DNA of 64,000 nt from assembly GCF_003991155.1 (NCBI RefSeq), contig NZ_CP031293.1; one strand, 5' to 3'. Each line of letters starts with the position of its first letter. Position 1 is the stretch's first letter. The notes below the pieces were generated by a model, which had not been told where the DNA came from, searched no databases, and was given only the letters and a program-made list of their open reading frames with translations. Source of the DNA: Escherichia coli. Lineage in GTDB: Bacteria; Pseudomonadota; Gammaproteobacteria; Enterobacterales; Enterobacteriaceae. Position numbers and translations under genes: made by a program. Of the stretch, positions 34,068 to 60,170 are shown piece after piece.

Positions 34068-34535
34068 TCATCGAAGGCATTGCGTCCTGATGTATTCCTG
34101 AAGCGTTCTCAGTGCTGTTTGGTCGCGGATAATTCCGTCCCGGATACCGAGAACGTTTCGTCCAGCAACTGGAGAGAGTTCGACGGTGGCATCATTGCCC
34201 ATGCCGGAGGCGCTGGAGGTTTCGGCTGAGGATGGCACAGGGCATTTTCCTTTGACGAGCACCCTGCCACCATTATCAAGCTTGCGCCGAAGAGCATCAT
34301 TTTCAGCTTTCGCATCAGCTAACTCCTTCGTGTATTTAGCATCAAGTGCATCAGCAGTACGCTGGCGCTGCTGCATGTCAGTAATGGTGGCAGTCGCCTG
34401 CTTCAGCTCACTGACTTTTTTATCACGCTGTTCTTTGTAGGCGATGGCGTTATCACGGTAATGATTAACAGCCCATGACAGGCAAACGATGATGCAGATA
34501 ACCAGAGCGGAGATAATCGCGGTTACTTTGCTCAT
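34068..34535 (-). CDS. Rz: i-spanin Rz
   Basis: 155 aa, N-terminal TM and coiled coil; follows endolysin. Confidence 0.8.
34109..34315 (-). CDS. Rz1: o-spanin Rz1, embedded in Rz in alternate frame
   Basis: 68 aa, lipobox MVAGC and Pro-rich [11 protein letters not shown]. Confidence 0.6.
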
Positions 34536-35008
34536 ACCTCAATCTCTCTGACCGTTCCGCCTGCTTCTTTGAATTTTGCAATCAGGCTGTCAGCCTTATG
34601 CTCGAACTGACCATAGCCAGCGCCCGGCAGTGAAGCCCAGATATTGCTGCAACGGTCAATTGCCTGACGAATATCACCGCGATCAATCATCGGTAAAGCG
34701 CCACGTTCTTTAATCTGTTGCAATGCCACAGCGTCCTGGCTTTTCGGAGAGAAGTCTTTCAGGCCAAGCTGCTTACGATAGGCATCCCACCAACGGGAAA
34801 GAAGCTGGTAACGTCCGGCTGCTGTTGATTTGAGTTTTGGGTTTAGCGTGACAAGTTTGCGAGGGTGATCGGAGTAATCAGTAAATAGCTCTCCGCCAAC
34901 AATGACGTCATAACCATGATTCCTGGTTTTCTGTCGTCCGTTATCAGTTCCCTCTGACCACGCCAGCATATCGAGGAACGCCTTACGTTGATTATTGATT
35001 TCCACCAT
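34532..35008 (-). CDS. R: Endolysin (lambda R-like lytic transglycosylase)
   Basis: 158 aa, [24 protein letters not shown]. Confidence 0.95.
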
Positions 35009-35315
35009 CTTCTACTCCGGCTTTTTTAGCAGCGAAGCGTTTGATAAGCGAACCAATCGAGTCAGTACCGATGTAGCCGATGAACACGCTCGTTATATAA
35101 GCGAGATTGCTACTTAGTCCGGCGAAGTCGAGAAGGTCACGAATGAACCAGGCGATAATGGCGCACATCGTTGCGTCGATTACTGTTTTTGTAAACGCAC
35201 CGCCATTATATCTGCCGCGAAGGTACGCCATTGCAAACGCAAGGATTGCCCCGATGCCTTGTTCCTTTGCCGCGAGAATGGCAGCTAACAGGTCATGTTT
35301 TTCTGGCATCTTCAT
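34992..35315 (-). CDS. S: Holin/antiholin (lambda S-like, dual start Met1/Met3)
   Basis: 107 aa, [20 protein letters not shown]. Confidence 0.95.
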
Positions 35316-35605
35316 GTCTTACCCCCAATAAGGGGATTTGCTCTATTTAATTAGGAATAAGGTCGATTTCTGATAGAACAAATCCAGGCTACTGTGTTTA
35401 GTAATCAGATTTGTTCGTGACCGATATGCACGGGCAAAACGGCAGGAGGTTGTTAGCGCAGCCTCTTGCCACCCGCTTTCACGAAGCCAGCCATTGCGCT
35501 GGTTTTCTTTTATGCAAAGCACACCGCACCGTAGCCACAGCGGATAAGGTGATTATTTTGGTCTGTCTGGTATTTGGTTTGATGCGCTTTCAGAAAGGTC
35601 GTGCT

Positions 35606-35645
35606 TAAAACGCAAAAAGCCCCGAGCTATTAACTCAGGGCTTTA
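35606..35645 (-). terminator. Intrinsic terminator just downstream of late promoter (tR'-like)
   Basis: Minus-strand hairpin GCCCTGAGTTAATAGCTCGGGGC followed by TTTTTGCGTTTT. Confidence 0.45.
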
Positions 35646-35664
35646 TTTAACGAGTGCATTTATC

Positions 35665-35710
35665 CATCGTTGAGTCAAATTTACCCAACTTTATTCAAAA
35701 AGTCAATATT
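35665..35710 (-). promoter_or_regulatory. Late promoter pR' with qut-like region
   Basis: Minus strand TTGACT-N17-TAAATT followed by TTGACTCAACGATGG, closely resembling lambda pR' as remembered. Confidence 0.6.
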
Positions 35711-35748
35711 ATGCCGTTAATATGTTGCCATCCGTGGCAATCATGCTG

Positions 35749-36372
35749 CTAACGTGTGACCGCATTCAAGATATTGTCTGCGATTGACTCTTCCTTGTGG
35801 CATTGCACCACCAGAGCGTCATACAGCGGCTTAACAGTGCGTGACCAGGTGGGTTGAGTAAGGTTTGGGATTAGCATCGTTACAGCGCGATATGCGGCGC
35901 TTGCTGGCATTCTTGAATAGCCGACACCTTTGCATCTTCCGCATTCTTTCTCAACAACTCTCCCCCACAACTCTGTTTTGGCAATATCAACCGCACGGCC
36001 TGTACCGTGGCAATCTCTGCATCTTGCGCCCGGCGTCGCGGCACTACGGCAATAATCCGCATAAGCGAATGTTGCGAGCACTTGCAGTACCTTTGCCTTA
36101 GTATTTCCTTCGAGCTTTGCCACACCACGGTATTTCCCCGATACCTTGTGTGCAAATTGCATCAGATAGTTGATAGCCTTTTGTTTGTCGTTCTGGCTGA
36201 GTTCGTGCTTACCGCAGAATGCAGCCATACCGAATCCGGCTTGTGATTGCGCCATCCCCATAGCAGCCATCACATCAGTACCGGAAAGGGAGTCAGAAGC
36301 CGTGGCCCGTGGTGAGTCGCTCATCATCGGGCTTTTTGGCGAATGAAATTTAGCTACGCTTTCGAGTCTCAT
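35749..36372 (-). CDS. Q: Late antiterminator Q (lambda-like)
   Basis: 207 aa, [21 protein letters not shown]; Cys-rich zinc region. Confidence 0.95.
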
Positions 36373-38533: not shown

Positions 38534-39057
38534 GCCGCCCTCCTGACGCCCTGCCCGATCGCCATCAATGCCGCTTTGGATACGGTAGTAAACATCCGTC
38601 GAGGATTGATGAACGGTCGCCAAATCAGCAGCATGGAACCTTTGCTGTTTCCCTTCTTCTCCAGCCCTGTCGATGGTTCGATAAAATTAATCCGTCCATC
38701 AGTGATGATGCGAACTTCGTCAATACTCTCCAGAGCCTTGCTGAACCATCCGACAGACATATCCTCTGGCACAAGCATCACTACCGTCTGTCGCTGTTGT
38801 ATGCACTGCTCAGCGGCTTTTTCCACCCACGGCCTGATATTGCTGTACGGTGGGTTATTCCAGATTGCACCGTGGCTTACCCACTCAGAATTGAGCGCGT
38901 CGTCGGCCTCAGTTAGCCAGTGAGCACACAGAGCATTTTTGTCGCTCGCTGCCGAATCCAGCCAGAATCCAAACTCAATATCCAGTGCATCAAAAAGCCA
39001 AAGCGGCGTTTGCCAGCAGTCCTTGTCGTGTGCTGGCGTATTTGATTTGATAGTCAT
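38530..39057 (-). CDS. Orphan DNA N6-adenine methyltransferase (phage Dam-like)
   Basis: 175 aa from MTIKSN; NPPY motif (AIWNNPPYS); no adjacent restriction endonuclease. Confidence 0.7.
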
Positions 39058-39497
39058 GCAGCCCGATCTCCCCATCTCGCTTTCCACTCCAGAGCCAGTC
39101 TCGCTTCGTCTGACCACTTAACGCCACGCTCTGTACCGAATGCCTGTATAAGCTCTAATAGCTCCGCAAATTCGCCTACACGCATCCTGCTGGTTGACTG
39201 GCCTATTACCACAAAGCCATTCCCGGCAAGGTTAGGAACAACATCCTGCTGCTTTAATGCTGCGGTAAACACACACTTCCAGCTTTCTGCATCCAGCCAA
39301 CGCCCATGCCATTCAACCTGACGAGAGACGTCACCTAAGCAGGCCCATAGCTTCCTGTTTTGGTCTAAGCTGCGGTTGCGTTCCTGAATGGTTACTACGA
39401 TTGGTTTGGTTGGGTCTGGAAGAATTTTCTGGATAGCTTGAATGGCGTTCTGCTGATGGATGGGGCTTCTTAGTTCAAACGTTAGTTTCCTCACCAT
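39054..39497 (-). CDS. ninB: NinB/Orf-like recombination mediator
   Basis: 147 aa, MVRKLTFELRSPIHQQNAIQ. Confidence 0.85.
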   Translation of the reverse strand: MVRKLTFELRSPIHQQNAIQAIQKILPDPTKPIVVTIQERNRSLDQNRKLWACLGDVSRQVEWHGRWLDAESWKCVFTAALKQQDVVPNLAGNGFVVIGQSTSRMRVGEFAELLELIQAFGTERGVKWSDEARLALEWKARWGDRAA

Positions 39498-39641
39498 TTA
39501 CGCTCCTGTAATCGTCAAGTGCAGCTGCAATAGTCCCTATCGGGTCATGGTCTTGCCCGATAATCTCATTTACGTTTTCATCTTCTTCCACACCGAAAAA
39601 GAATCGCAGGGCTAACATGATTTCTTCGTATGCGCTCATAC

Positions 39642-39956
39642 TCACTCCTTCACTTTGACTCCAGCAGTGCGGATGGCCTCTACATCGCTTTCGTATTGTG
39701 ATTCTGCACCTGAGTCATAGCCAATGTGATAATCACCGGGAAGTGGGCCTTTCTTTGGCTTTTGCAGCTCAATTTCAATAGCTGCTCTCGATGCCTGCCA
39801 CGTTTGCCAGTGGCCTTGAACATCGTCCATCACGTATTGACCACCAATATTACCGCTGCCAATTTCATGGTGATTTTCAGGGTAACGGATAAGGTCTGAA
39901 GATTCGCCCCCACGTCGCAACCAACTTTCTTCAAACTGCTTTCTTGATTCGTCCAT
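39642..39956 (-). CDS. Hypothetical protein
   Basis: 104 aa ORF between helicase gene and ninB; no recognised motif. Confidence 0.4.
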   Translation of the reverse strand: MDESRKQFEESWLRRGGESSDLIRYPENHHEIGSGNIGGQYVMDDVQGHWQTWQASRAAIEIELQKPKKGPLPGDYHIGYDSGAESQYESDVEAIRTAGVKVKE

Positions 39957-39973
39957 TGATACTTACCCTCAGT

Positions 39974-40180
39974 TCAACTCACAAAACGCCACGCCATTTT
40001 TGCTACGACAACAGGCATAACACCGATAATCACCCAGACAAATGCAGCGCCAAACAACGTATACCATGGGTCTTTACCGTCATTCACAAGACGAATGTAG
40101 CTATGCAGAACAATAAAAAACGTCAGAAGAATCCATCCAACGCCAACGCATTTGAATGCGACGAGCATAAACTCAGCCAC
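39974..40180 (-). CDS. Small two-helix membrane protein, unknown function
   Basis: 68 aa, two hydrophobic segments. Confidence 0.35.
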   Translation of the reverse strand: MAEFMLVAFKCVGVGWILLTFFIVLHSYIRLVNDGKDPWYTLFGAAFVWVIIGVMPVVVAKMAWRFVS

Positions 40181-40252
40181 GATTTACCCTCCCCCAAATA
40201 AAAAGGCCTGCGATTACCAGCAGGCCTGTTATTAGCTCAGTGATGTAGATGG

Positions 40253-41629
40253 TCATACGTCCGCCCCTTGTGCATATCGTCTGCCACGCGCAGCAGGCGC
40301 ATTTGATGCTGTGCAAATCTGTCTGGCTTCATCCTGGTCACATGCAACAAAGTGTCCGTTACAGAACCGCTGGTAAACCGTACCAAGTGAGCCAAAACGG
40401 TTTTTCGTCACGATGATTTCAGCAAATGGCGCGGCGCTACTGTTCTCGTCATATACCGCTTCCCGATAGAGCATGATGATTGAGTCTGCGTCCTGCTCAA
40501 TGCTTCCTGAATCACGCAAATCTGCGTTTGTCGGGCGTTTGTTTGGTCGCTTCTCAACATCGCGCGAAAGCTGACTCAGGGAGATAACAGGCGTTTTCAG
40601 GTCTTTCGCCATCGCCTTCAGGCTTCCGGAGATGTGAGCAATTGCGAGGTCGTTGCGGTCTGCTTTCGGCTTCTCAATCAGGCCAAGATAATCCGCCATG
40701 ATTAGAGACAGGTTTGGATTTTCCTGTTTATGCCGTTCTGCGATTGAGCGTATTTCTTCGACCGATAACCGCGAGGCATCGACTACCCATACATCCAAAT
40801 CTGCAAGCTGACTCATGCCGTTAGCAACACGCGCCCAGCCTTCGTCATCCATCGATGCAGGATTTCGCAGTACGCTAACCGACATCCTCCCGGCGTTGGC
40901 AATGCTTCGCTCTGCAATCTGCAATGCGCTCATTTCCATCGAGAAAATCAACACTCCGCGCCGGACGTCAGAACCGGGAATAACGCGGCTTGCAACGCCT
41001 TCAGCAATCTTCAGCGCCAGCTCGGTTTTCCCCATACCAGGACGAGCGGCGATAATCACCAGGTCTTCCGCGTTCATCCCTCCGGTGATGGCGTCAAGTT
41101 CTTCGATTCCGGTCTTCAGGGTATCTGACTCTTCTCCGTTCCTCAGACGCCTGTCAAGCGTGTCAGTGTAGTCAGTGATGATTTCCCCTAACCGTACAGG
41201 TTTAACCTCGTCACGGGGCTTTCTGATGGCTGAAAGACGCTTTACAAGCTCGTCCATCGCCTGACTCGATGTATCGATGGTTCCGCTCTGAATTGGTTCA
41301 CGCATTTCATCCATGATTTCCAGCACCAGACGGCGGTGATAGTTATCCGCGACCATTCCGGCATATCCTTTCAGGTTTGCGGCACTCGGGCAGTTTTTGC
41401 TGGTCATCAGGATTGACGTGAAATGCTCCTCTCCGCACGCCTCGGCAACCATCAGCGCGTCGATTAGGTTTCTGTTTCTCGCCTGCTTGCGGATAACCTC
41501 GAAGGCTTTCCGGTAGAGCGGAATTGAAAACGCTTCCGGCTCCAGTGTTGCCAGAACGTCGCTGGCGGTTGGAGTTAATCCACCAATCAGCAGACCGCCG
41601 ATAACGCTCGCTTCGATATCCTGTCTCAT
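40253..41629 (-). CDS. Replicative DnaB-like helicase (P22 gene 12-like)
   Basis: 458 aa, Walker A GMGKT and DnaB C-terminal motifs. Confidence 0.9.
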
Positions 41630-42573
41630 GCAATCCCCCTGTCTGCAAACTTCCCTTCCCGTACTCCCGTTAACGAATCTTCCCTCAGCAGGTAATCAAA
41701 ATCTGCCGTCCATCCCGTGTCGTTGTCTCCGAAGTAAAACGGCTTGGCCTGATGCACAAACGCCCTGACATACGCTCTGAAACCGTCCACGTTTGGCGTT
41801 TTCAGTTGCGGGATGATTTTCTTCAGGCGGCGTTTGCGTTTCTCGTTGACCGCAACAGCGTGTGGCAGTCTGTCACCGACTTCGGTGTTGTAAGCGTTCA
41901 GGAAGGATTCGTAGTCGATTCGTTCTGCCTTGCGACGTTCAGGTTTAACCTGCCCATCGCCTCCCCCATTGGGGGGTAGGGGGGTATTATTTATATTCTT
42001 GTTAATACCTTCTTGTTCATGATGTGCGGTTGTTTGTGCGGCTTCATGTGCGCTTTCATGTGCGGCATGTACGCTGAATGCCGCGCCATTACTGGCTTCA
42101 TCATGTGCGGCATCATGTGCGGTTGTTTGTGCGGCTTCATGTGCGGGTGAACTGTCCATTTTTTGAGCATATTCATGGTAATTTGTGATGGTTATCACAC
42201 GACCTTTTTGCTTCTCCCCATCAATGGAGATCATCCCCTCTTTCACAAAAACCTGAAGCATCCGCTCAACCTGATCACGGCTTGCCGGCTTGCCATGCCT
42301 GTCGCATAACTGAAGACCTAAATCAGCTGCTGTCACAACCAGTTGACCGGGTTGCAGATGCCATTCATGACCTTTGAAATTCGCTTTGTATGGCTTTCTG
42401 GCGGCATTCAGGAGAAGGTTTTCCCACAGGGTGCGAAGATAAACATCTTTCGCCCATGACTGTTTCAGAATGCTCCGGTACAACGGAATGTAACCAGTTT
42501 TCTGGTTCTCCATCCTGTTGCTCCTGCGCTCGTGTGCGGCGCTGAAATCGTAGATTTTTGCTGTATTGCTCAT
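41626..42573 (-). CDS. Replication initiator (P22 gene 18 / O-like) containing ori iterons
   Basis: 315 aa; repeat-encoded His/Ala-rich tract; overlaps helicase start. Confidence 0.8.
42018..42150. repeat. Replication-origin iterons inside the initiator gene
   Basis: Repeated (T)CATGTGCGG units; ~30-bp block ATGTGCGGTTGTTTGTGCGGCTTCATGTGCG present twice. Confidence 0.6.
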
Positions 42574-42870: not shown

Positions 42871-43164
42871 TTAAAATTCCATTTGTATTTGATCAGAACG
42901 CTCGGTTGCCGCCGGGCGTTTTTTATTGGTGAGAATCGAAGCAACTTGTCGTGCCAATCGAGCCATATCGTCGTCAACGACGCCCCATTCAAGAACAGCA
43001 AGCAGCATTGAGAACTTTGGAATCCAGTCCCTCTTCCACCTGCTGATCTGCGACTTATCAACTCCCACAGCTTCCGCTGTCTTCTCAGTTCCAAGCATTG
43101 CGATTTTGTTAAGCAACGCACTCTCGATTCGTAGAGCCTCGTTGCGTTTGTTTGCACGAACCAT
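42871..43164 (-). CDS. cII: CII-like lysogeny establishment regulator
   Basis: 97 aa from MVRANKRNEALRIESALLNKIAMLG, lambda CII-like. Confidence 0.9.
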   Translation of the reverse strand: MVRANKRNEALRIESALLNKIAMLGTEKTAEAVGVDKSQISRWKRDWIPKFSMLLAVLEWGVVDDDMARLARQVASILTNKKRPAATERSDQIQMEF

Positions 43165-43221
43165 ATGTAAGTATTTCCTTAACAAATAAGAAGTTATGCG
43201 CATCAACTTATGCGCGTTGTA

Positions 43222-43266
43222 TTCCCGCATTTCGGCGGGAATGAGGACCATGACTGTTAAAGAGCA
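43222..43266 (-). promoter_or_regulatory. nutR (boxA + boxB hairpin)
   Basis: Minus strand TGCTCTTTAACA then hairpin TCCCGCCGAAATGCGGGA; same elements downstream of PL. Confidence 0.55.
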
Positions 43267-43272
43267 ATTTGC

Positions 43273-43458
43273 TTATGCCGCTTTGCGGTAAGCGCTTTCT
43301 TGATACTTCAGGGCGCCAGCTGTAACGACTTCCAGTCGATAGGCGTCTTTCTCTGGGATGACTTCCTTCCACTGAGAGACTGCTGCGTCGCTAATGCCTA
43401 ACGCTTTAGCTACAGCACGCTGGGTTCCGAAGTGGTCGATAACATCTTTCTTGTACAT
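43273..43458 (-). CDS. cro: Cro (P22-type)
   Basis: 61 aa, MYKKDVIDHFGTQRAVAKALGISDAAVSQW. Confidence 0.9.
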   Translation of the reverse strand: MYKKDVIDHFGTQRAVAKALGISDAAVSQWKEVIPEKDAYRLEVVTAGALKYQESAYRKAA

Positions 43459-43472
43459 AGACTCGCTCCGAA

Positions 43473-43538
43473 ATTAAAGAACACTTAAATTATCCACTAA
43501 AGGAATCTTAAGTCAAGTTTATTTAAGATGTCTTAACT
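43473..43538. promoter_or_regulatory. OR operator cluster with PR/PRM (three 18-bp P22-type operators)
   Basis: ATTAAAGAACACTTAAAT, ACTAAAGGAATCTTAAGT, ATTTAAGATGTCTTAACT between divergent cro and c2. Confidence 0.7.
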
Positions 43539-44189
43539 ATGAAAACTCAATTGATGGGAGAGCGCATTCGCGCTCGGAGAAAAGAACTCAAGATCAGGCA
43601 GGCCGCACTTGGAAAGATGGTCGGCGTGTCTAATGTTGCCATATCTCAGTGGGAACGCTCTGAGACAGAGCCAAATGGAGAGAATCTTCTCGCCCTGGCT
43701 AATGCGTTGAAGTGTTCCCCTGACTATCTGATGAAAGGAGAGGAAAGTCTTTCAAACATTGCCTATCACAGTAGGCATGATCCAAGAGGGTCATACCCTC
43801 TGATTAGCTGGGTGAGCGCAGGATGCTGGATGGAAGCTGTAGAACCATATCATAAGCGTGCAATAGATAACTGGTACGATACAACCGTAGACTGTTCAGA
43901 AGATTCGTTTTGGTTGGATGTGAAGGGAGACTCAATGACGGCTCCGGCCGGTCTCAGTATCCCTGAAGGAATGATAATACTCGTCGATCCTGAAGTAGAG
44001 CCGCGTAACGGGAAACTGGTAGTTGCAAAGCTCGAAGGAGAAAACGAGGCAACTTTCAAGAAGTTAGTTATTGATGCAGGCAGGAAGTTTCTAAAACCAC
44101 TTAACCCACAATATCCGATGATCGAGATCAACGGAAACTGCAAAATCATCGGCGTAGTTGTCGATGCAAAACTAGCAAACCTTCCATAA
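43539..44189 (+). CDS. c2: C2 repressor (P22-type, LexA-like autocleaving)
   Basis: 216 aa, HTH N-domain and S24 peptidase C-domain. Confidence 0.95.
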   Translation: MKTQLMGERIRARRKELKIRQAALGKMVGVSNVAISQWERSETEPNGENLLALANALKCSPDYLMKGEESLSNIAYHSRHDPRGSYPLISWVSAGCWMEAVEPYHKRAIDNWYDTTVDCSEDSFWLDVKGDSMTAPAGLSIPEGMIILVDPEVEPRNGKLVVAKLEGENEATFKKLVIDAGRKFLKPLNPQYPMIEINGNCKIIGVVVDAKLANLP

Positions 44190-44214
44190 GGGGGCATTCG
44201 CCCCTTTTTTTTAT
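44190..44214 (+). terminator. Intrinsic terminator after c2
   Basis: GGGGCATTCGCCCC followed by TTTTTTTT. Confidence 0.55.
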
Positions 44215-44254
44215 TTCCTTTAAAAATCAAAGCCAAACTTAAGTTACGAAAGAA

Positions 44255-44310
44255 AATTTAAGTTTTCTTCAAAAATACTCTTGACCATTAATTAAAGAGA
44301 TCTTAAATTT
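44255..44310 (+). promoter_or_regulatory. OL operators and PL promoter
   Basis: Operator-like palindrome ATTAAAGAGATCTTAAAT and TTTAAG-containing site; TTGACC -35 at 44281. Confidence 0.5.
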
Positions 44311-44355
44311 AAGCCATCAGCAGGACGCTGGAAGCCAAACGGAACAGATTGGCAG

Positions 44356-44396
44356 GCTCTTTAACATTGATGGGATTGTCCCGCCGAAATGCGGGA
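44356..44396 (+). promoter_or_regulatory. nutL (boxA + boxB hairpin)
   Basis: GCTCTTTAACA then TCCCGCCGAAATGCGGGA, inverted copy of nutR. Confidence 0.55.
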
Positions 44397-44795
44397 ACCA
44401 AAGAGTAGTTGGCTTTGGGATTGGATGAATGAGCAGGCTGATGCTCGACCAATGTATAAACAGCGCTCATGGCAAGCAGTAACCAATCTGCGCCTCAAGA
44501 CAGCGTCACTGGTAGTGCGGGCGCTCTAACCAGTAAGCCGGAGTTCAGCACCGGCCATCCAATCGCCAAAGTCAATTCCATAGGCGTTATGCAGCCGCCA
44601 CCTATTCAAGAAAGCTGCACAAGAGGTAGGAGGATTTATGTGAATACTTACATTCAATTGAGAGATTAATTAAATAGAACTGATCGAGCAGAGTCCATAA
44701 AGGCTCATAAATGCTCTTCCATCCCCGTCTAATTGGCGGGGAAGGAAACCACTTTGTAATAAAAAAATTCCAAAGTTGTTTCATCGGAGGTCAAC

Positions 44796-45095
44796 ATGAC
44801 AGTAGTCATTACATATCTAGCTGACGATAACGCCAGAAATCGCCGCAGAGCACGCAGGCAGGCTCAACGTGAACAGGCAATGCAAGAACAGCGACTGGCG
44901 CGAAAGATTGCGCTAAAGCTCTCTGGTTGCGTCAGAGCAGACAAAGCAGCATCACTCGGAAGCCTTCGCTGCAAGAAGGCAGAAGAAGTCGAGAGTAAAC
45001 AGAACCGTATTTACTACCGCAAGCCACGCAGTGAAATGGGTGTGACTTGTGTTGGTCGCCAGAAAATGAAATTAGGCAGCAAACCACTTATTTGA
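44796..45095 (+). CDS. N-like antitermination protein (P22 gene 24-like)
   Basis: 99 aa, arginine-rich motif NARNRRRARRQAQREQ. Confidence 0.7.
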   Translation: MTVVITYLADDNARNRRRARRQAQREQAMQEQRLARKIALKLSGCVRADKAASLGSLRCKKAEEVESKQNRIYYRKPRSEMGVTCVGRQKMKLGSKPLI

Positions 45096-45730: not shown

Positions 45731-45903
45731 TCGGCCTTTATTTTTGGCACTAACAACAGAATAAACACTGCACTGTGTATTCATTCCAACGAGTGAATAC
45801 ACGGAGCAATGTCGCTCTTAACTAAACAGGAGCCGACTTGTTCTGATTATTGGAAATCTTCTTTGCCCTCCAGTGTGAGGGCGATTTTTTTGATGGAGGA
45901 TAT

Positions 45904-46872
45904 ATGAGTGAAGTAACAGATTTAGTTGTTATTGAAAAAGCAAATGCAATGACTGTATTTCAGTCTGCCGACCAGATTGAAGAAATCCTTCAAAGGGTTG
46001 AACGTGAAGTTATGTCCTTTGTGCCTGATATCACAACGGCAAAGGGCAGAAAGGAGATCGCTTCTCTGGCGTATAAAGTTGCGCAGACGAAAACATATCT
46101 CGATGGTCTTGGCAAAGACCTTGTTGCTGAACTGAAGGAAATTCCAAAGCTAATTGATGCCAACCGCAAGACAGTGCGCGATCGCCTTGATGAGCTGAAA
46201 GCCAAGGCACGCCAGCCTCTTACTGATTATGAGGAAGAACAGGCGCGGATTAAAGCCGAAGAAGAAGCTAAGGCAGCAGCTGAAGCTCTCGCAAAGCAAA
46301 TTGAGTCTGACCATGAAATAGCTATTTTGATGGATCGCGAATTTGACCGCCAAAGAGAAGAGGCAAGACTCAAAGCGGAGCAGGAAAAGCGAGAGCATGA
46401 AGAACGCTTAAAAAGAGAAGCTGAAGAGAAAGCCAGAGCAGAAGCCGAAGCAAAGGCAAAAGCCGAAATTGAAGCAGCAGCAAGGCGAGAAGCAGAAGCT
46501 AAGGCCGCAGCGGAACGTGCAGAGCGTGAACGCATTGAAGCCGAGCAACGAGCACAGCGCGAAGCAAAAGAGGCAGCAGAACGAGCTGAAAGAGAAAAGC
46601 AGGCGGCAATTGAAGCAGAACGCCGAAAAGCACAGGAGGAGGCTGAACGAATCCGGCGCGAGGCTGAAGCAAAAGAGCAAGCCAGAATAGCAGAAGAAAA
46701 AAGAATCAAGGACGAAGAAGAGCGTAGAGCAAAGGATAAAGCTCACCGGAAAGAAGTAAATAACAAAATACTTGCTGACCTTATCAAGGTTGGCGCATCA
46801 GAAGATGTTGCTAAAAATATCATAACAGCCATCGTAAAAGGCGAAGTATTCGCAACAAAAATAACCTACTAA
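45904..46872 (+). CDS. Coiled-coil protein with TolA domain-II-like Ala/Glu/Lys/Arg repeats
   Basis: 322 aa from ATG with GGAGGA RBS; ~180-aa low-complexity tract. Confidence 0.5.
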   Translation: MSEVTDLVVIEKANAMTVFQSADQIEEILQRVEREVMSFVPDITTAKGRKEIASLAYKVAQTKTYLDGLGKDLVAELKEIPKLIDANRKTVRDRLDELKAKARQPLTDYEEEQARIKAEEEAKAAAEALAKQIESDHEIAILMDREFDRQREEARLKAEQEKREHEERLKREAEEKARAEAEAKAKAEIEAAARREAEAKAAAERAERERIEAEQRAQREAKEAAERAEREKQAAIEAERRKAQEEAERIRREAEAKEQARIAEEKRIKDEEERRAKDKAHRKEVNNKILADLIKVGASEDVAKNIITAIVKGEVFATKITY

Positions 46873-47418: not shown

Positions 47419-48126
47419 ATGGATTTGAACAAATTCGATGAACCATTCAGCCCTGAAGATATCGAATGGCGAATACAGCAAAGCGGTAAAACACGCGATG
47501 GCAAGGTGTGGGCTATGGTGCTGGCTTATGTCACGAACCGGGCAATCATGAAACGCCTGGACGATGTTTGCGGCAAAGCAGGATGGCGCAATGAATACCG
47601 CGATATTCCCAACAACGGCGGAGTTGAATGCGGCATATCAATCAAGATTGATTCCGAATGGGTAACCAAATGGGATGCTGCTGAAAACACGCAGGTAGAA
47701 GCCGTCAAAGGTGGTCGTTCCGGTGCAATGAAGCGTGCTGCCGTTCAATGGGGAATCGGTCGGTATCTGTATAACCTTGAGGAAGGTTTCGCACAAACAT
47801 CTCTCGATAAAAAGCAGGGATGGCACAGGGCAAAACTGAAGGATGGAACAGGATTTTACTGGCTCCCTCCATCGCTGCCGGGATGGGCAATCCCAGCATC
47901 AGATAACAAACCATCACCAGAAAATACCAACCAGAAATCTCCATCGGTTGACTGCGAACAAATCCTGAAAGACTTCAGCGATTATGCATCAACAGAAACT
48001 GACAAGAAAAAACTCATCGAGCGTTATCAGCGTGACTGGCAATTAATGGCTGGCAACGAGGAGGCGCAGGCTAAATGCGTTCAGGTAATGAACATCAGAG
48101 TTAACGAACTAAAACAGGCGGCATAA
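47419..48126 (+). CDS. Rad52-family single-strand annealing protein
   Basis: 235 aa; AAVQWGIGRYLY motif. Confidence 0.65.
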   Translation: MDLNKFDEPFSPEDIEWRIQQSGKTRDGKVWAMVLAYVTNRAIMKRLDDVCGKAGWRNEYRDIPNNGGVECGISIKIDSEWVTKWDAAENTQVEAVKGGRSGAMKRAAVQWGIGRYLYNLEEGFAQTSLDKKQGWHRAKLKDGTGFYWLPPSLPGWAIPASDNKPSPENTNQKSPSVDCEQILKDFSDYASTETDKKKLIERYQRDWQLMAGNEEAQAKCVQVMNIRVNELKQAA

Positions 48127-48633
48127 ATGGCAAGCAGAGGCGTAAATAAGGTGATTATCCTTGGTCGGGTAGGACAAGACCCGGAAGTTCGATACTCACC
48201 ATCAGGAACAGCGTTCGCTAACCTGACAATAGCCACGTCAGAACAATGGCGAGATAAAAATACTGGCGAGCAAAAGGAATTAACTGAATGGCATCGTGTT
48301 GCTGTATCCGGGAAACTGGCTGAGGTCGTGGGGCAGTATGTGAAAAAAGGTGATCAGATTTATTTCGAGGGAATGCTGAGAACCAGAAAGTGGAAAGACC
48401 AGTCAGGGCAAGACCGTTACACAACCGAGGTTCATGTCGGAATTAATGGCGTGATGCAAATGCTTGGCGGCATTGGCGACAGCAAACAACAAGCAGCCAG
48501 CAGGCAATCACAGAAGCCACAGCAGCAATCATCACCAGCACAACACAACGAACCTCCGATGGATTTTGACGACGATATACCCTTTGCACCAGTAACTCTC
48601 CCCTTCCCTCGTCACGCTATTCACGCAATTTAA
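48127..48633 (+). CDS. ssb: Single-stranded DNA-binding protein
   Basis: 168 aa; OB-fold N-domain, Gln-rich linker, acidic DFDDDIPF tail. Confidence 0.9.
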
Positions 48634-57527: not shown

Positions 57528-57793
57528 GGTCATTCTCCTTTACGGTGATAACCGTCGCGTAAGCAAAAAATTGCCCCATTTTTTTGGATTCCTCAGCGAC
57601 AACAACTGTCGATTTTTAGTAAATATCTATCCGGTACGAAGCCCGGCCTCTTGGTATGAATGATTGGTTTGAAGCAAAAAATAACCGACGCTAATTAAAC
57701 GTCGGTTTTTAGTCATTTTTTGACAGCGGCGCATTGTGCCTAAATGGGGGGGAAATGACAAGAGAATGAGAGGCTTGTCATAATAATTTTTCT

Positions 57794-60019: not shown

Positions 60020-60070
60020 ATGACACGCGTTCAATTTAAACACCACCATCATCACCATCATCCTGACTAG
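60020..60070 (+). CDS. hisL: his operon leader peptide
   Basis: MTRVQFKHHHHHHHPD with seven consecutive His codons. Confidence 0.9.
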   Translation: MTRVQFKHHHHHHHPD

Positions 60071-60170
60071 TCTTTCAGGCGATGTGTGCTGGAAGACATT
60101 CAGATCTTCCAGTGGTGCATGAACGCATGAAAAAGCCCCCGGAAGATCACCTTCCGGGGGCTTTTTTATT
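60071..60170 (+). promoter_or_regulatory. his attenuator including terminator hairpin
   Basis: Hairpin AAAGCCCCCGGAAGATCACCTTCCGGGGGCTTTTTT at 60132-60170. Confidence 0.8.

Follow-up and report, generated by a model that had tools for sequence, protein, structure and literature searches.

Introduction

How does a lambdoid phage fill the space between its last replication gene and ninB? In lambda the ninA/tR2 module stands between ren and ninB, with ninB immediately after it. The terminator tR2 of lambda stops part of the transcription that starts at pR, unless RNA polymerase has been modified by N. In HK022 tR2 is followed by genes 58-60, namely a 68-residue gene, a PF26207 gene and a small gene, and then by ninB. 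An equivalent gene order is found in mEp213, H-19B, the Stx2 phages, phiv205-1 and prophages annotated in RefSeq. Two further features of the region have been described. The translation start of NinA lies 30 bp upstream of tR2, and ribosomes translating near tR2 repress termination (PMC4824070). The nin genes are known to be interlinked by overlaps of the ATGA type (PMC8022706, which cites Kroger and Hobom 1982; PMC11016777).

Here we examine the corresponding interval in a stretch of 64,000 nucleotides from Escherichia coli (contig NZ_CP031293.1, assembly GCF_003991155.1), called the window below, whose coordinates are used throughout. As in lambda, the ninA/tR2 module of the window stands after the last replication gene. 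In the window, however, that gene encodes a DnaB-type helicase, and three genes, orf68, orf104 and orf56, intervene between the module and ninB, in the same order as in HK022. Lambda Ren is encoded in the same interval, from the replication genes to ninB, but upstream of ninA/tR2, whereas the genes of the window lie downstream. Family scans of orf104, orf68 and orf56 gave no NCBIfam or Pfam match, so they detected no likeness to Ren.

On balance we think that the interval probably holds a chain of four closely linked small genes that open the lambdoid nin segment, that is, the delayed-early part of the pR operon, three of them being accessory cassettes placed after tR2. The roles that we discuss for these genes are offered with low confidence.

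Organization of the interval

All of the genes concerned are encoded by the minus strand. A P22-gene-18-like replication initiator is found at 41626-42573, and the DnaB-type replicative helicase, whose RefSeq homologues are named 'replicative DNA helicase', at 40253-41629. Downstream of the helicase, the ORF list and the sequence together give the chain dnaB, ninA (holding tR2), orf68, orf104, orf54/56 and ninB. The hydrophobic product of ninA (40173-40256; PHROG 5907) has 27 residues. The TGA stop of the helicase overlaps its ATG as ATGA, and its own stop overlaps the GTG start of orf68 by 8 nt. The gene orf68 (39974-40180; PHROG 1165) encodes 68 residues, predicted to form a two-helix hairpin, and has the Shine-Dalgarno sequence GGAGG 7 nt upstream of the GTG. 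It is followed by orf104 (39642-39956; PHROG 343 and PF26207), which starts with ATG and encodes an acidic, soluble protein of 104 residues. A GTGA overlap joins orf104 to orf56 (39475-39645; PHROG 1603), a gene with a GTG start for a very acidic protein of 56 residues. In RefSeq the latter appears as orf54, starting from the ATG at 39639 and 54 residues long. Its last codons, EETNV, run over the start of ninB at 39497, an overlap of 23 nt; ninB itself (39054-39497), the gene of the Orf recombination mediator, is included here as context. Each gene of the interval is preceded by a properly spaced Shine-Dalgarno sequence, and RefSeq annotates all three of orf68, orf104 and orf56 in near-identical prophages.

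An earlier, sequence-only reading of this DNA had called two genes, of 104 and 68 codons, between the helicase and ninB, and had noted an ORF of about 56 codons over the ninB start. The coordinates and sizes of the two genes were exact, and the third ORF is real. The same reading described the genes as unknown, but they are not new. They are catalogued as PHROG 1165, 343 and 1603 and as PF26207, and are annotated in HK022 (genes 58-60), Sf6 (gene 48), mEp213, the Stx phages and RefSeq prophages; they are also conserved in related prophages. By these matches, orf68, orf104 and orf56 are known, widely conserved lambdoid accessory genes, and any role given to them below is one that we infer. The earlier comparison of their position with the slot of P22 ninA and lambda ren was sound as regards position. 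But the window has a ninA and a tR2 of its own, and the genes are additional to these.

The terminator within ninA

The element between the helicase and orf68, which the earlier reading had passed over, consists of ninA and tR2. A terminator scan of the minus strand identified the hairpin at 40195-40227. It has the stem AGGCCTGC, the loop TGGTAATC and the closing stem GCAGGCCT, 8 bp in all and GC-rich, and is backed by the U-tract TTTTTATTT. In an alignment with lambda 40539-40659 and with HK620, the window from 40256 to about 40190 is nearly base-for-base identical to lambda 40567-40636 and to HK620; the match begins at the ninA ATG, takes in the hairpin and U-tract, which are identical to those of lambda, and reaches the Shine-Dalgarno sequence GGGGGAG. 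The 27-residue ORF matches phrog_5907 (E = 1.3e-18). The HK620 record gives this ORF the name ninA ('similar to P22 NinA') and labels the same hairpin 'terminator tR2'. As judged from these identities, the ORF is NinA and the hairpin is the canonical tR2 of lambda. A search of the interval with Rfam found no RNA family.

Records hit by tblastn list a ninA feature, and the 68-residue gene was considered as a candidate for NinA itself. We rejected this, the NinA of HK620 being the upstream 27-residue ORF. We likewise rejected, as rare, an in-frame fusion of ninA with orf68 to give a three-helix protein; it was seen in Salmonella (P0133), and most Salmonella loci are out of frame.

How constant is the association of this module with orf68? 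Of 80 IMG/VR loci fetched for orf68, 76 gave a usable ORF, and in all 76 the ninA/tR2 module with the same Shine-Dalgarno sequence stands upstream of it. The same holds for all seven annotated phage records compared (L085, L090 and L092 being outside the comparison). Loci of the HK022 type retain of ninA just the half with the hairpin. HK022 itself has an HNH endonuclease upstream, and in it and the phages of like gene order the combinations of orf68 allele and orf104 cassettes differ from that of the window. The left boundary of the mosaic falls exactly at the ninA ATG in at least seven different, unrelated upstream contexts, and a reading of the locus sequences found a purine-rich run resembling a Shine-Dalgarno sequence 5-9 nt before that ATG in each of them. 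Codons 2-10 of ninA correspond approximately to the part upstream of the hairpin, codon 10 overlapping the first base of the stem. They show eight synonymous and four non-synonymous substitution types, weak evidence that the NinA peptide is under selection.

Predicted expression of the downstream genes

If the terminator precedes the accessory genes, when are they expressed? The window contains a pR-like promoter at 43516-43489 (minus strand), a lambda-like cII gene with the oop terminator opposite, a cI-type repressor gene and, at 44796-45095, an ORF for an arginine-rich, N-like protein. A search for lambda-type boxB near the immunity region found no nut site. A simple sigma-70 consensus scan of the minus strand from pR to ninB, of a kind that could miss weak or non-canonical promoters, found no promoter-like site. 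The terminator lies upstream, not downstream, of the cassettes that begin with orf68, and the ribosome-binding site of orf68 lies directly 3' of the tR2 U-tract.

Since the genes have no promoter-like site of their own, and since that ribosome-binding site follows the U-tract so closely, the synthesis of orf68, orf104 and orf54/56 would require transcripts that extend past tR2. Such transcripts would come from RNA polymerase antiterminated by N, in lytic growth or upon induction, and not from the resting lysogen. By analogy with lambda, the small genes most likely belong to the delayed-early lytic class and need N to carry transcription through tR2. The overlaps of starts and stops suggest translational coupling along the whole chain dnaB, ninA, orf68, orf104, orf56 and ninB. 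Since tR2 lies within the translated ninA, and ribosomes near tR2 repress termination, translation of ninA may itself suppress the terminator, and the dependence on N may be only partial.

The membrane protein encoded by orf68

Is orf68 maintained as a gene? It matches PHROG 1165 over its entire length (E = 1.6e-38; residues 1-68 on profile positions 1-68 of 68). The allele of the window is 91-98.5% identical in protein sequence to those of HK620, mEp213, H-19B and vB_EcoP-611R6, and 54.5% identical to the HK022 allele. Between the window and the HK022-type allele, 74 of 207 nucleotides differ (36%), with pS 0.59 and pN 0.29 (dN/dS about 0.33), and the reading frame and the length of 68 codons are intact. 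Because length and frame are kept across this divergence, because dN/dS is about 0.33 and because the PHROG match is complete, orf68 is on comparative grounds a genuine protein-coding gene, subject to moderate purifying selection.

One could argue instead that the three ORFs are non-functional filler, their frames kept open only as recombination linkers or as spacing between tR2 and ninB. The orf68 dN/dS rises to 0.6-0.7 against the Salmonella clade and to about 1 in certain of the most closely related pairs, which have few differences. One locus (L062) carries an in-frame stop in orf68, and the cassettes are dispensable, lambda, HK620 and Kapi1 being without some or all of them. But 68 codons have survived a nucleotide divergence at which pS is twice pN, the motif persists in remote homologues whose genomic surroundings are unrelated (see below), the structure models of orf68 and orf104 are confident, and each gene has a well-placed Shine-Dalgarno sequence. 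We regard the filler explanation as very improbable and treat the ORFs as genes.

A word-indexed search of 5.8 billion proteins returned 43 orf68 clusters, whose sources are all Escherichia and Salmonella; every full-length cluster has 68 residues, and shorter partial calls and longer fusion calls are also present. By tblastn, orf68 occurs in 107 phage records, among them HK620 (where it is unannotated), HK633, mEp213, H-19B, HK022 (gene 58), the Stx2a phages, Kapi1 and P22-like Salmonella phages. Its DNA is present in 538 of 5,426 complete E. coli genomes (about 10%) and at full length in 227. Scans against Pfam-A, NCBIfam and PADLOC gave no significant match for orf68 or for the other small proteins, and the weak matches (MnhG and a T4SS pilin, E about 0.03) are chance matches of hydrophobic helices.

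A profile search of 1.84 billion representatives with the orf68 family added 27 small proteins. Thirteen of the 16 that were retrieved are 60-66 residues long, each with the pattern W-M ... N-x-G-x-D-P ... W-x3-G-x2-P-V-x3-K-x2-W. Three of these remote relatives were looked up, and each lies among small genes in a phage-like or temperate-phage region; no Pfam domain was seen in the contexts inspected.

What does the protein look like? Kyte-Doolittle windows of 19 residues exceed 1.6 at residues 1-14 and 39-50. AlphaFold2 predicts a helical hairpin of residues 2-33 and 38-67 (pLDDT 88). An independent DeepTMHMM note in the record of the homologue Kapi1_027 gives helices at 11-25 and 46-59. These three lines of evidence agree with the two transmembrane helices that the sequence-only reading had predicted. 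A comparison with solved structures found no similarity. The second helix and the C-terminal tail (WVIIGVMPVVVAKMAWRFVS) are nearly invariant and the first helix is variable; past the second helix the tail is short, about seven residues (AKMAWRFVS) with a net charge of +2. The protein probably lies in the inner membrane as a helical hairpin with both ends inside (N-in/C-in), an assignment made from the models with low confidence.

Could such a protein damage the membrane? Class II holins and pinholins, for example S68 of phage 21, belong to the same class of size and topology as a 68-residue protein with two transmembrane helices. The earlier reading had indeed proposed a toxin, a holin-like protein or an abortive-infection effector. 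In its full form the proposal is that orf68 is a membrane-damaging toxin, is holin- or antiholin-like, or is an effector that depolarises the membrane in abortive infection. The GTG start and the translational coupling would fit a deliberately low expression of something harmful. The location of the gene does not favour this proposal. It lies in the early right operon, at a delayed-early position under pR and 4.7 kb from the lysis cassette, and the prophage already has the lambda genes S (with the dual start MKM), R, Rz and Rz1 (34068-35315) within a complete Q-S-R-Rz-Rz1 late region (34068-36372). Nor does the protein resemble a holin at its C-terminus, where a typical holin has a long, charged, basic domain and orf68 has its short tail. 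PADLOC, run on the four small proteins, found no family at E <= 1. With no promoter-like site nearby in the consensus scan, expression in the lysogen, as abortive infection would require, is unlikely. Carriage by about a tenth of complete E. coli genomes also argues against a toxin. We consider the membrane-damaging proposal quite improbable, and the roles of holin or of lysogen-expressed abortive-infection toxin unlikely.

A gentler membrane function would be superinfection exclusion. T4 Imm is a small inner-membrane protein that blocks phage DNA arriving later at the membrane. Like orf68 it is a small protein with two transmembrane segments, a likeness of size and topology alone. By analogy, orf68 might be expressed early to block DNA entry into a cell already in lytic growth. 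A small inner-membrane hairpin placed early in the lytic programme is consistent with this, and the conserved second helix and loop motif N-x-G-x-D-P would suit the binding of a membrane component. But the carriers differ widely in their tails and routes of entry: they include the P22-like HK620, Kapi1 and Salmonella podophages, the siphophages HK022 and mEp213, and short-tailed Stx phages. With carriers so varied, tuning to one entry route is not obvious, and no family annotation suggests exclusion. This function too seems to us improbable.

Our best guess, held with low confidence, is that orf68 acts by binding a partner rather than by forming a pore. It would be a small inner-membrane modulator that engages a host or phage membrane protein through its second helix and C-terminal tail. 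Our search of the literature, papers on the nin region included, found no functional study of orf68, orf104 or orf56.

The mosaic protein encoded by orf104

To which family does orf104 belong? Over its full length it matches phrog_343 (E = 1.5e-30), and every listed homologue, including those 95-98% identical to it, carries the precomputed domain PF26207 (Phage_phiTE_015). A 98%-identical copy is named 'phiTE_015 family protein' in RefSeq. Our Pfam-A profile scan gave no match, the release used presumably being without PF26207. The translated gene 015 of phiTE matches phrog_343 as well (4e-21) and is 33% identical to orf104. Members are about 90-105 residues long and share the signature F8 ... 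W-x-x-W-x-A-S-R-A-A-I-E ... A-G. The alignment shows no variation at M1, S4, F8, W53, R57 and G99, and little at W50, A55, S56, A59 and A98. Carriers range from lambdoid phages (HK022 gene 59, Sf6 gene 48) to phiTE, the Pseudomonas jumbo phage PA5oct and phages of Klebsiella and Hafnia; the member in phage Gally is annotated 'similar to P22 EaD'. Matches at the level of fold are to Aeromonas and other phage proteins and are weak (E = 0.01-0.3). Searches of PDB sequences, with orf104 alone and with the family profile, gave no match and hence no solved fold. PF26207 carries no functional annotation, and a literature search on phiTE_015, PF26207 and the PHROG identifiers found no functional study.

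The protein is built from conserved and exchangeable parts. Three conserved linkers, MDESRKQFEE, WQASRAAIEIEL and AIRxAGxKVKE (AIRAAGIKVKE in the window), flank two cassettes. Among 155 parsed sequences we counted 11 N-terminal and 14 C-terminal cassette types in 31 combinations, the window having the pair N0/C5. The ranges of megablast hits place DNA breakpoints at the linkers, one near 39927, following codon 10, and the other near 39764, following codon 64. Some homologues have in addition an in-frame N-terminal extension, either a CxxC...CxC module or a MRWAIKHKSGR module. AlphaFold2 assigns high pLDDT to the conserved helices and low pLDDT to the cassettes; the scaffold comprises a helix at 3-14, a helix at 37-58, a short strand pair and a helix at 83-97. 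We conclude from these combinations that the halves of orf104 reassort freely between phages.

What might the reassortment serve? With low confidence, we suggest that orf104 is a cytoplasmic binding protein with a conserved scaffold, whose specificity would be diversified by cassette exchange. A more specific version makes orf104, and possibly orf54/56, an anti-defence or host-takeover binding protein caught in an arms race and retargeted by cassette recombination. The combinatorial pairing of N- and C-terminal cassettes would fit this, as would the acidity of both proteins (pI 5.0 for orf104, 4.05 for orf56), the early accessory position and the spread of the family from lambdoid phages to phiTE, PA5oct and the Klebsiella and Hafnia phages. 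On the other hand, we saw no similarity to known anti-defence proteins, and the cassettes, which the model predicts with low confidence, may be no more than tolerant loops. All lambdoid genes, moreover, show mosaicism at conserved junctions, and this need not reflect selection for diversity. The linkers could be kept partly as the Shine-Dalgarno sequence of a neighbour or as recombination sites, and not for the function of the protein. An anti-defence role is thus a doubtful proposition, to which we nevertheless give some weight; the broader suggestion of a binding protein on a conserved scaffold is the one that we carry forward.

The exchangeable gene before ninB

The third slot is occupied in the window by orf56, which matches PHROG 1603 over its full length with E = 1.7e-32. 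In other phages it holds unrelated genes, among them one for a different two-helix protein of 63 residues and one for an 84-residue protein of PHROG 8458. The 63-residue protein and several other occupants share the start MSMS at the junction, and the 84-residue protein shares the end EETNV, overlapping ninB. Since varied genes meet their neighbours through common ends, the whole interval from tR2 to ninB is, by its sequence pattern, a classic lambdoid site of cassette exchange. Three exchangeable accessory cassettes stand between ninA/tR2 and ninB, which are adjacent in lambda, and the ribosome-binding site GGGGGAG, which in that phage belongs to ninB, has passed to orf68.

A bolder generalization treats the PF26207 proteins as widespread phage specificity modules, each a helical scaffold with two exchangeable cassettes that recognise different host targets, for example a defence system or another host factor. 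The tR2-ninB interval would then be a dedicated hotspot for swapping counter-defence genes, with orf68 and the unrelated 63-residue two-helix protein as its membrane-acting members. We rate this generalization as improbable.

Conclusions

The outcome is chiefly a corrected annotation. Between the helicase and ninB lie a textbook tR2 embedded in ninA and, after it, three accessory genes that are already catalogued. Only two points seem to us mildly interesting beyond this, the shuffling of cassettes in the PF26207 protein and the translated ORF that holds tR2. The latter offers a natural case of an intrinsic terminator lying within a translated ORF with apparent coupling to the gene on either side. 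If the genes after tR2 were indeed host-interaction or counter-defence factors, that would matter, since they are carried by Stx-converting phages and are present in about 10% of the complete E. coli genomes. The reassortment of two cassettes in the PF26207 protein would then be a natural experiment for the mapping of specificity.

Prophage setting

Where does the prophage lie, and what surrounds the replication genes? Rfam matches identify STnc240, an sRNA, at 57674-57748 and the leader of the histidine operon at 60046-60169, which places the prophage beside the his operon in the chromosome of an enterobacterium. On the minus strand, 34068-36372 holds the full set of late regulatory and lysis genes of the lambda type: a Q-like gene (35749-36372), the S holin (34992-35315), which has the MKM dual start, then R (34532-35008), Rz (34068-34535) and Rz1 (34109-34315).

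The immunity region (42871-43516 and 43539-45095) includes a lambda-like cII, opposite which lies an oop-type terminator (42895-42922, plus strand), together with a pR-like promoter (43516-43489), a repressor of the cI type (43539-44189) and a 99-aa N-like ORF rich in arginine (44796-45095). A lambda-type boxB was looked for near this region and was not found. The early-left operon includes a 340-aa ORF (45850-46872, plus strand) with a long coiled-coil-like middle rich in Glu, Ala, Lys and Arg; it lies upstream of a recombinase-like ORF and SSB (47419-48633).

Within the replication-initiator ORF (41626-42573) is an internal repetitive stretch, at about 42000-42180, that encodes repeats resembling a 10-residue unit and gives rise, in its other frames, to odd ORFs rich in His, Met, Pro and Lys. 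This stretch probably represents the origin iterons.

The PF26207 gene and the slot that follows it

Comparison of proteins P0001-P0120 and of loci L005-L084 revealed that the PF26207 gene (39642-39956, minus strand) is internally mosaic. Its cassettes, 11 N-terminal and 14 C-terminal types in 31 combinations, are set between three conserved linkers, and some homologues carry in-frame N-terminal add-on modules, either CxxC...CxC or MRWAIKHKSGR.

What occupies the next slot, that of orf56, in other phages? Among the same loci we found a different two-helix membrane protein of 63 aa (MSMSRRSSFLGFVIFL...), for which a PHROG search returned no match, and an 84-aa protein of PHROG 8458. Like several further occupants of the slot, the 63-aa protein begins with MSMS. 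The 84-aa protein starts differently but has the EETNV end junction in common.

ninA and tR2

The 27-aa ORF ninA (40173-40256, minus strand) encloses the canonical lambda terminator tR2. Its start is coupled to the stop of dnaB via ATGA, and an 8-nt overlap couples its stop to the start of orf68, the gene of the 68-aa two-helix membrane protein. Two rare variants were detected: in one IMG/VR locus the tR2 loop is inverted (GCGATTACCTGC), its stem being unchanged, and in some Salmonella prophages (P0133 and its relatives) ninA and orf68 form an in-frame fusion of 93 aa. The ninA/tR2 arrangement is a naturally occurring example of a translated ORF with an intrinsic terminator inside it.
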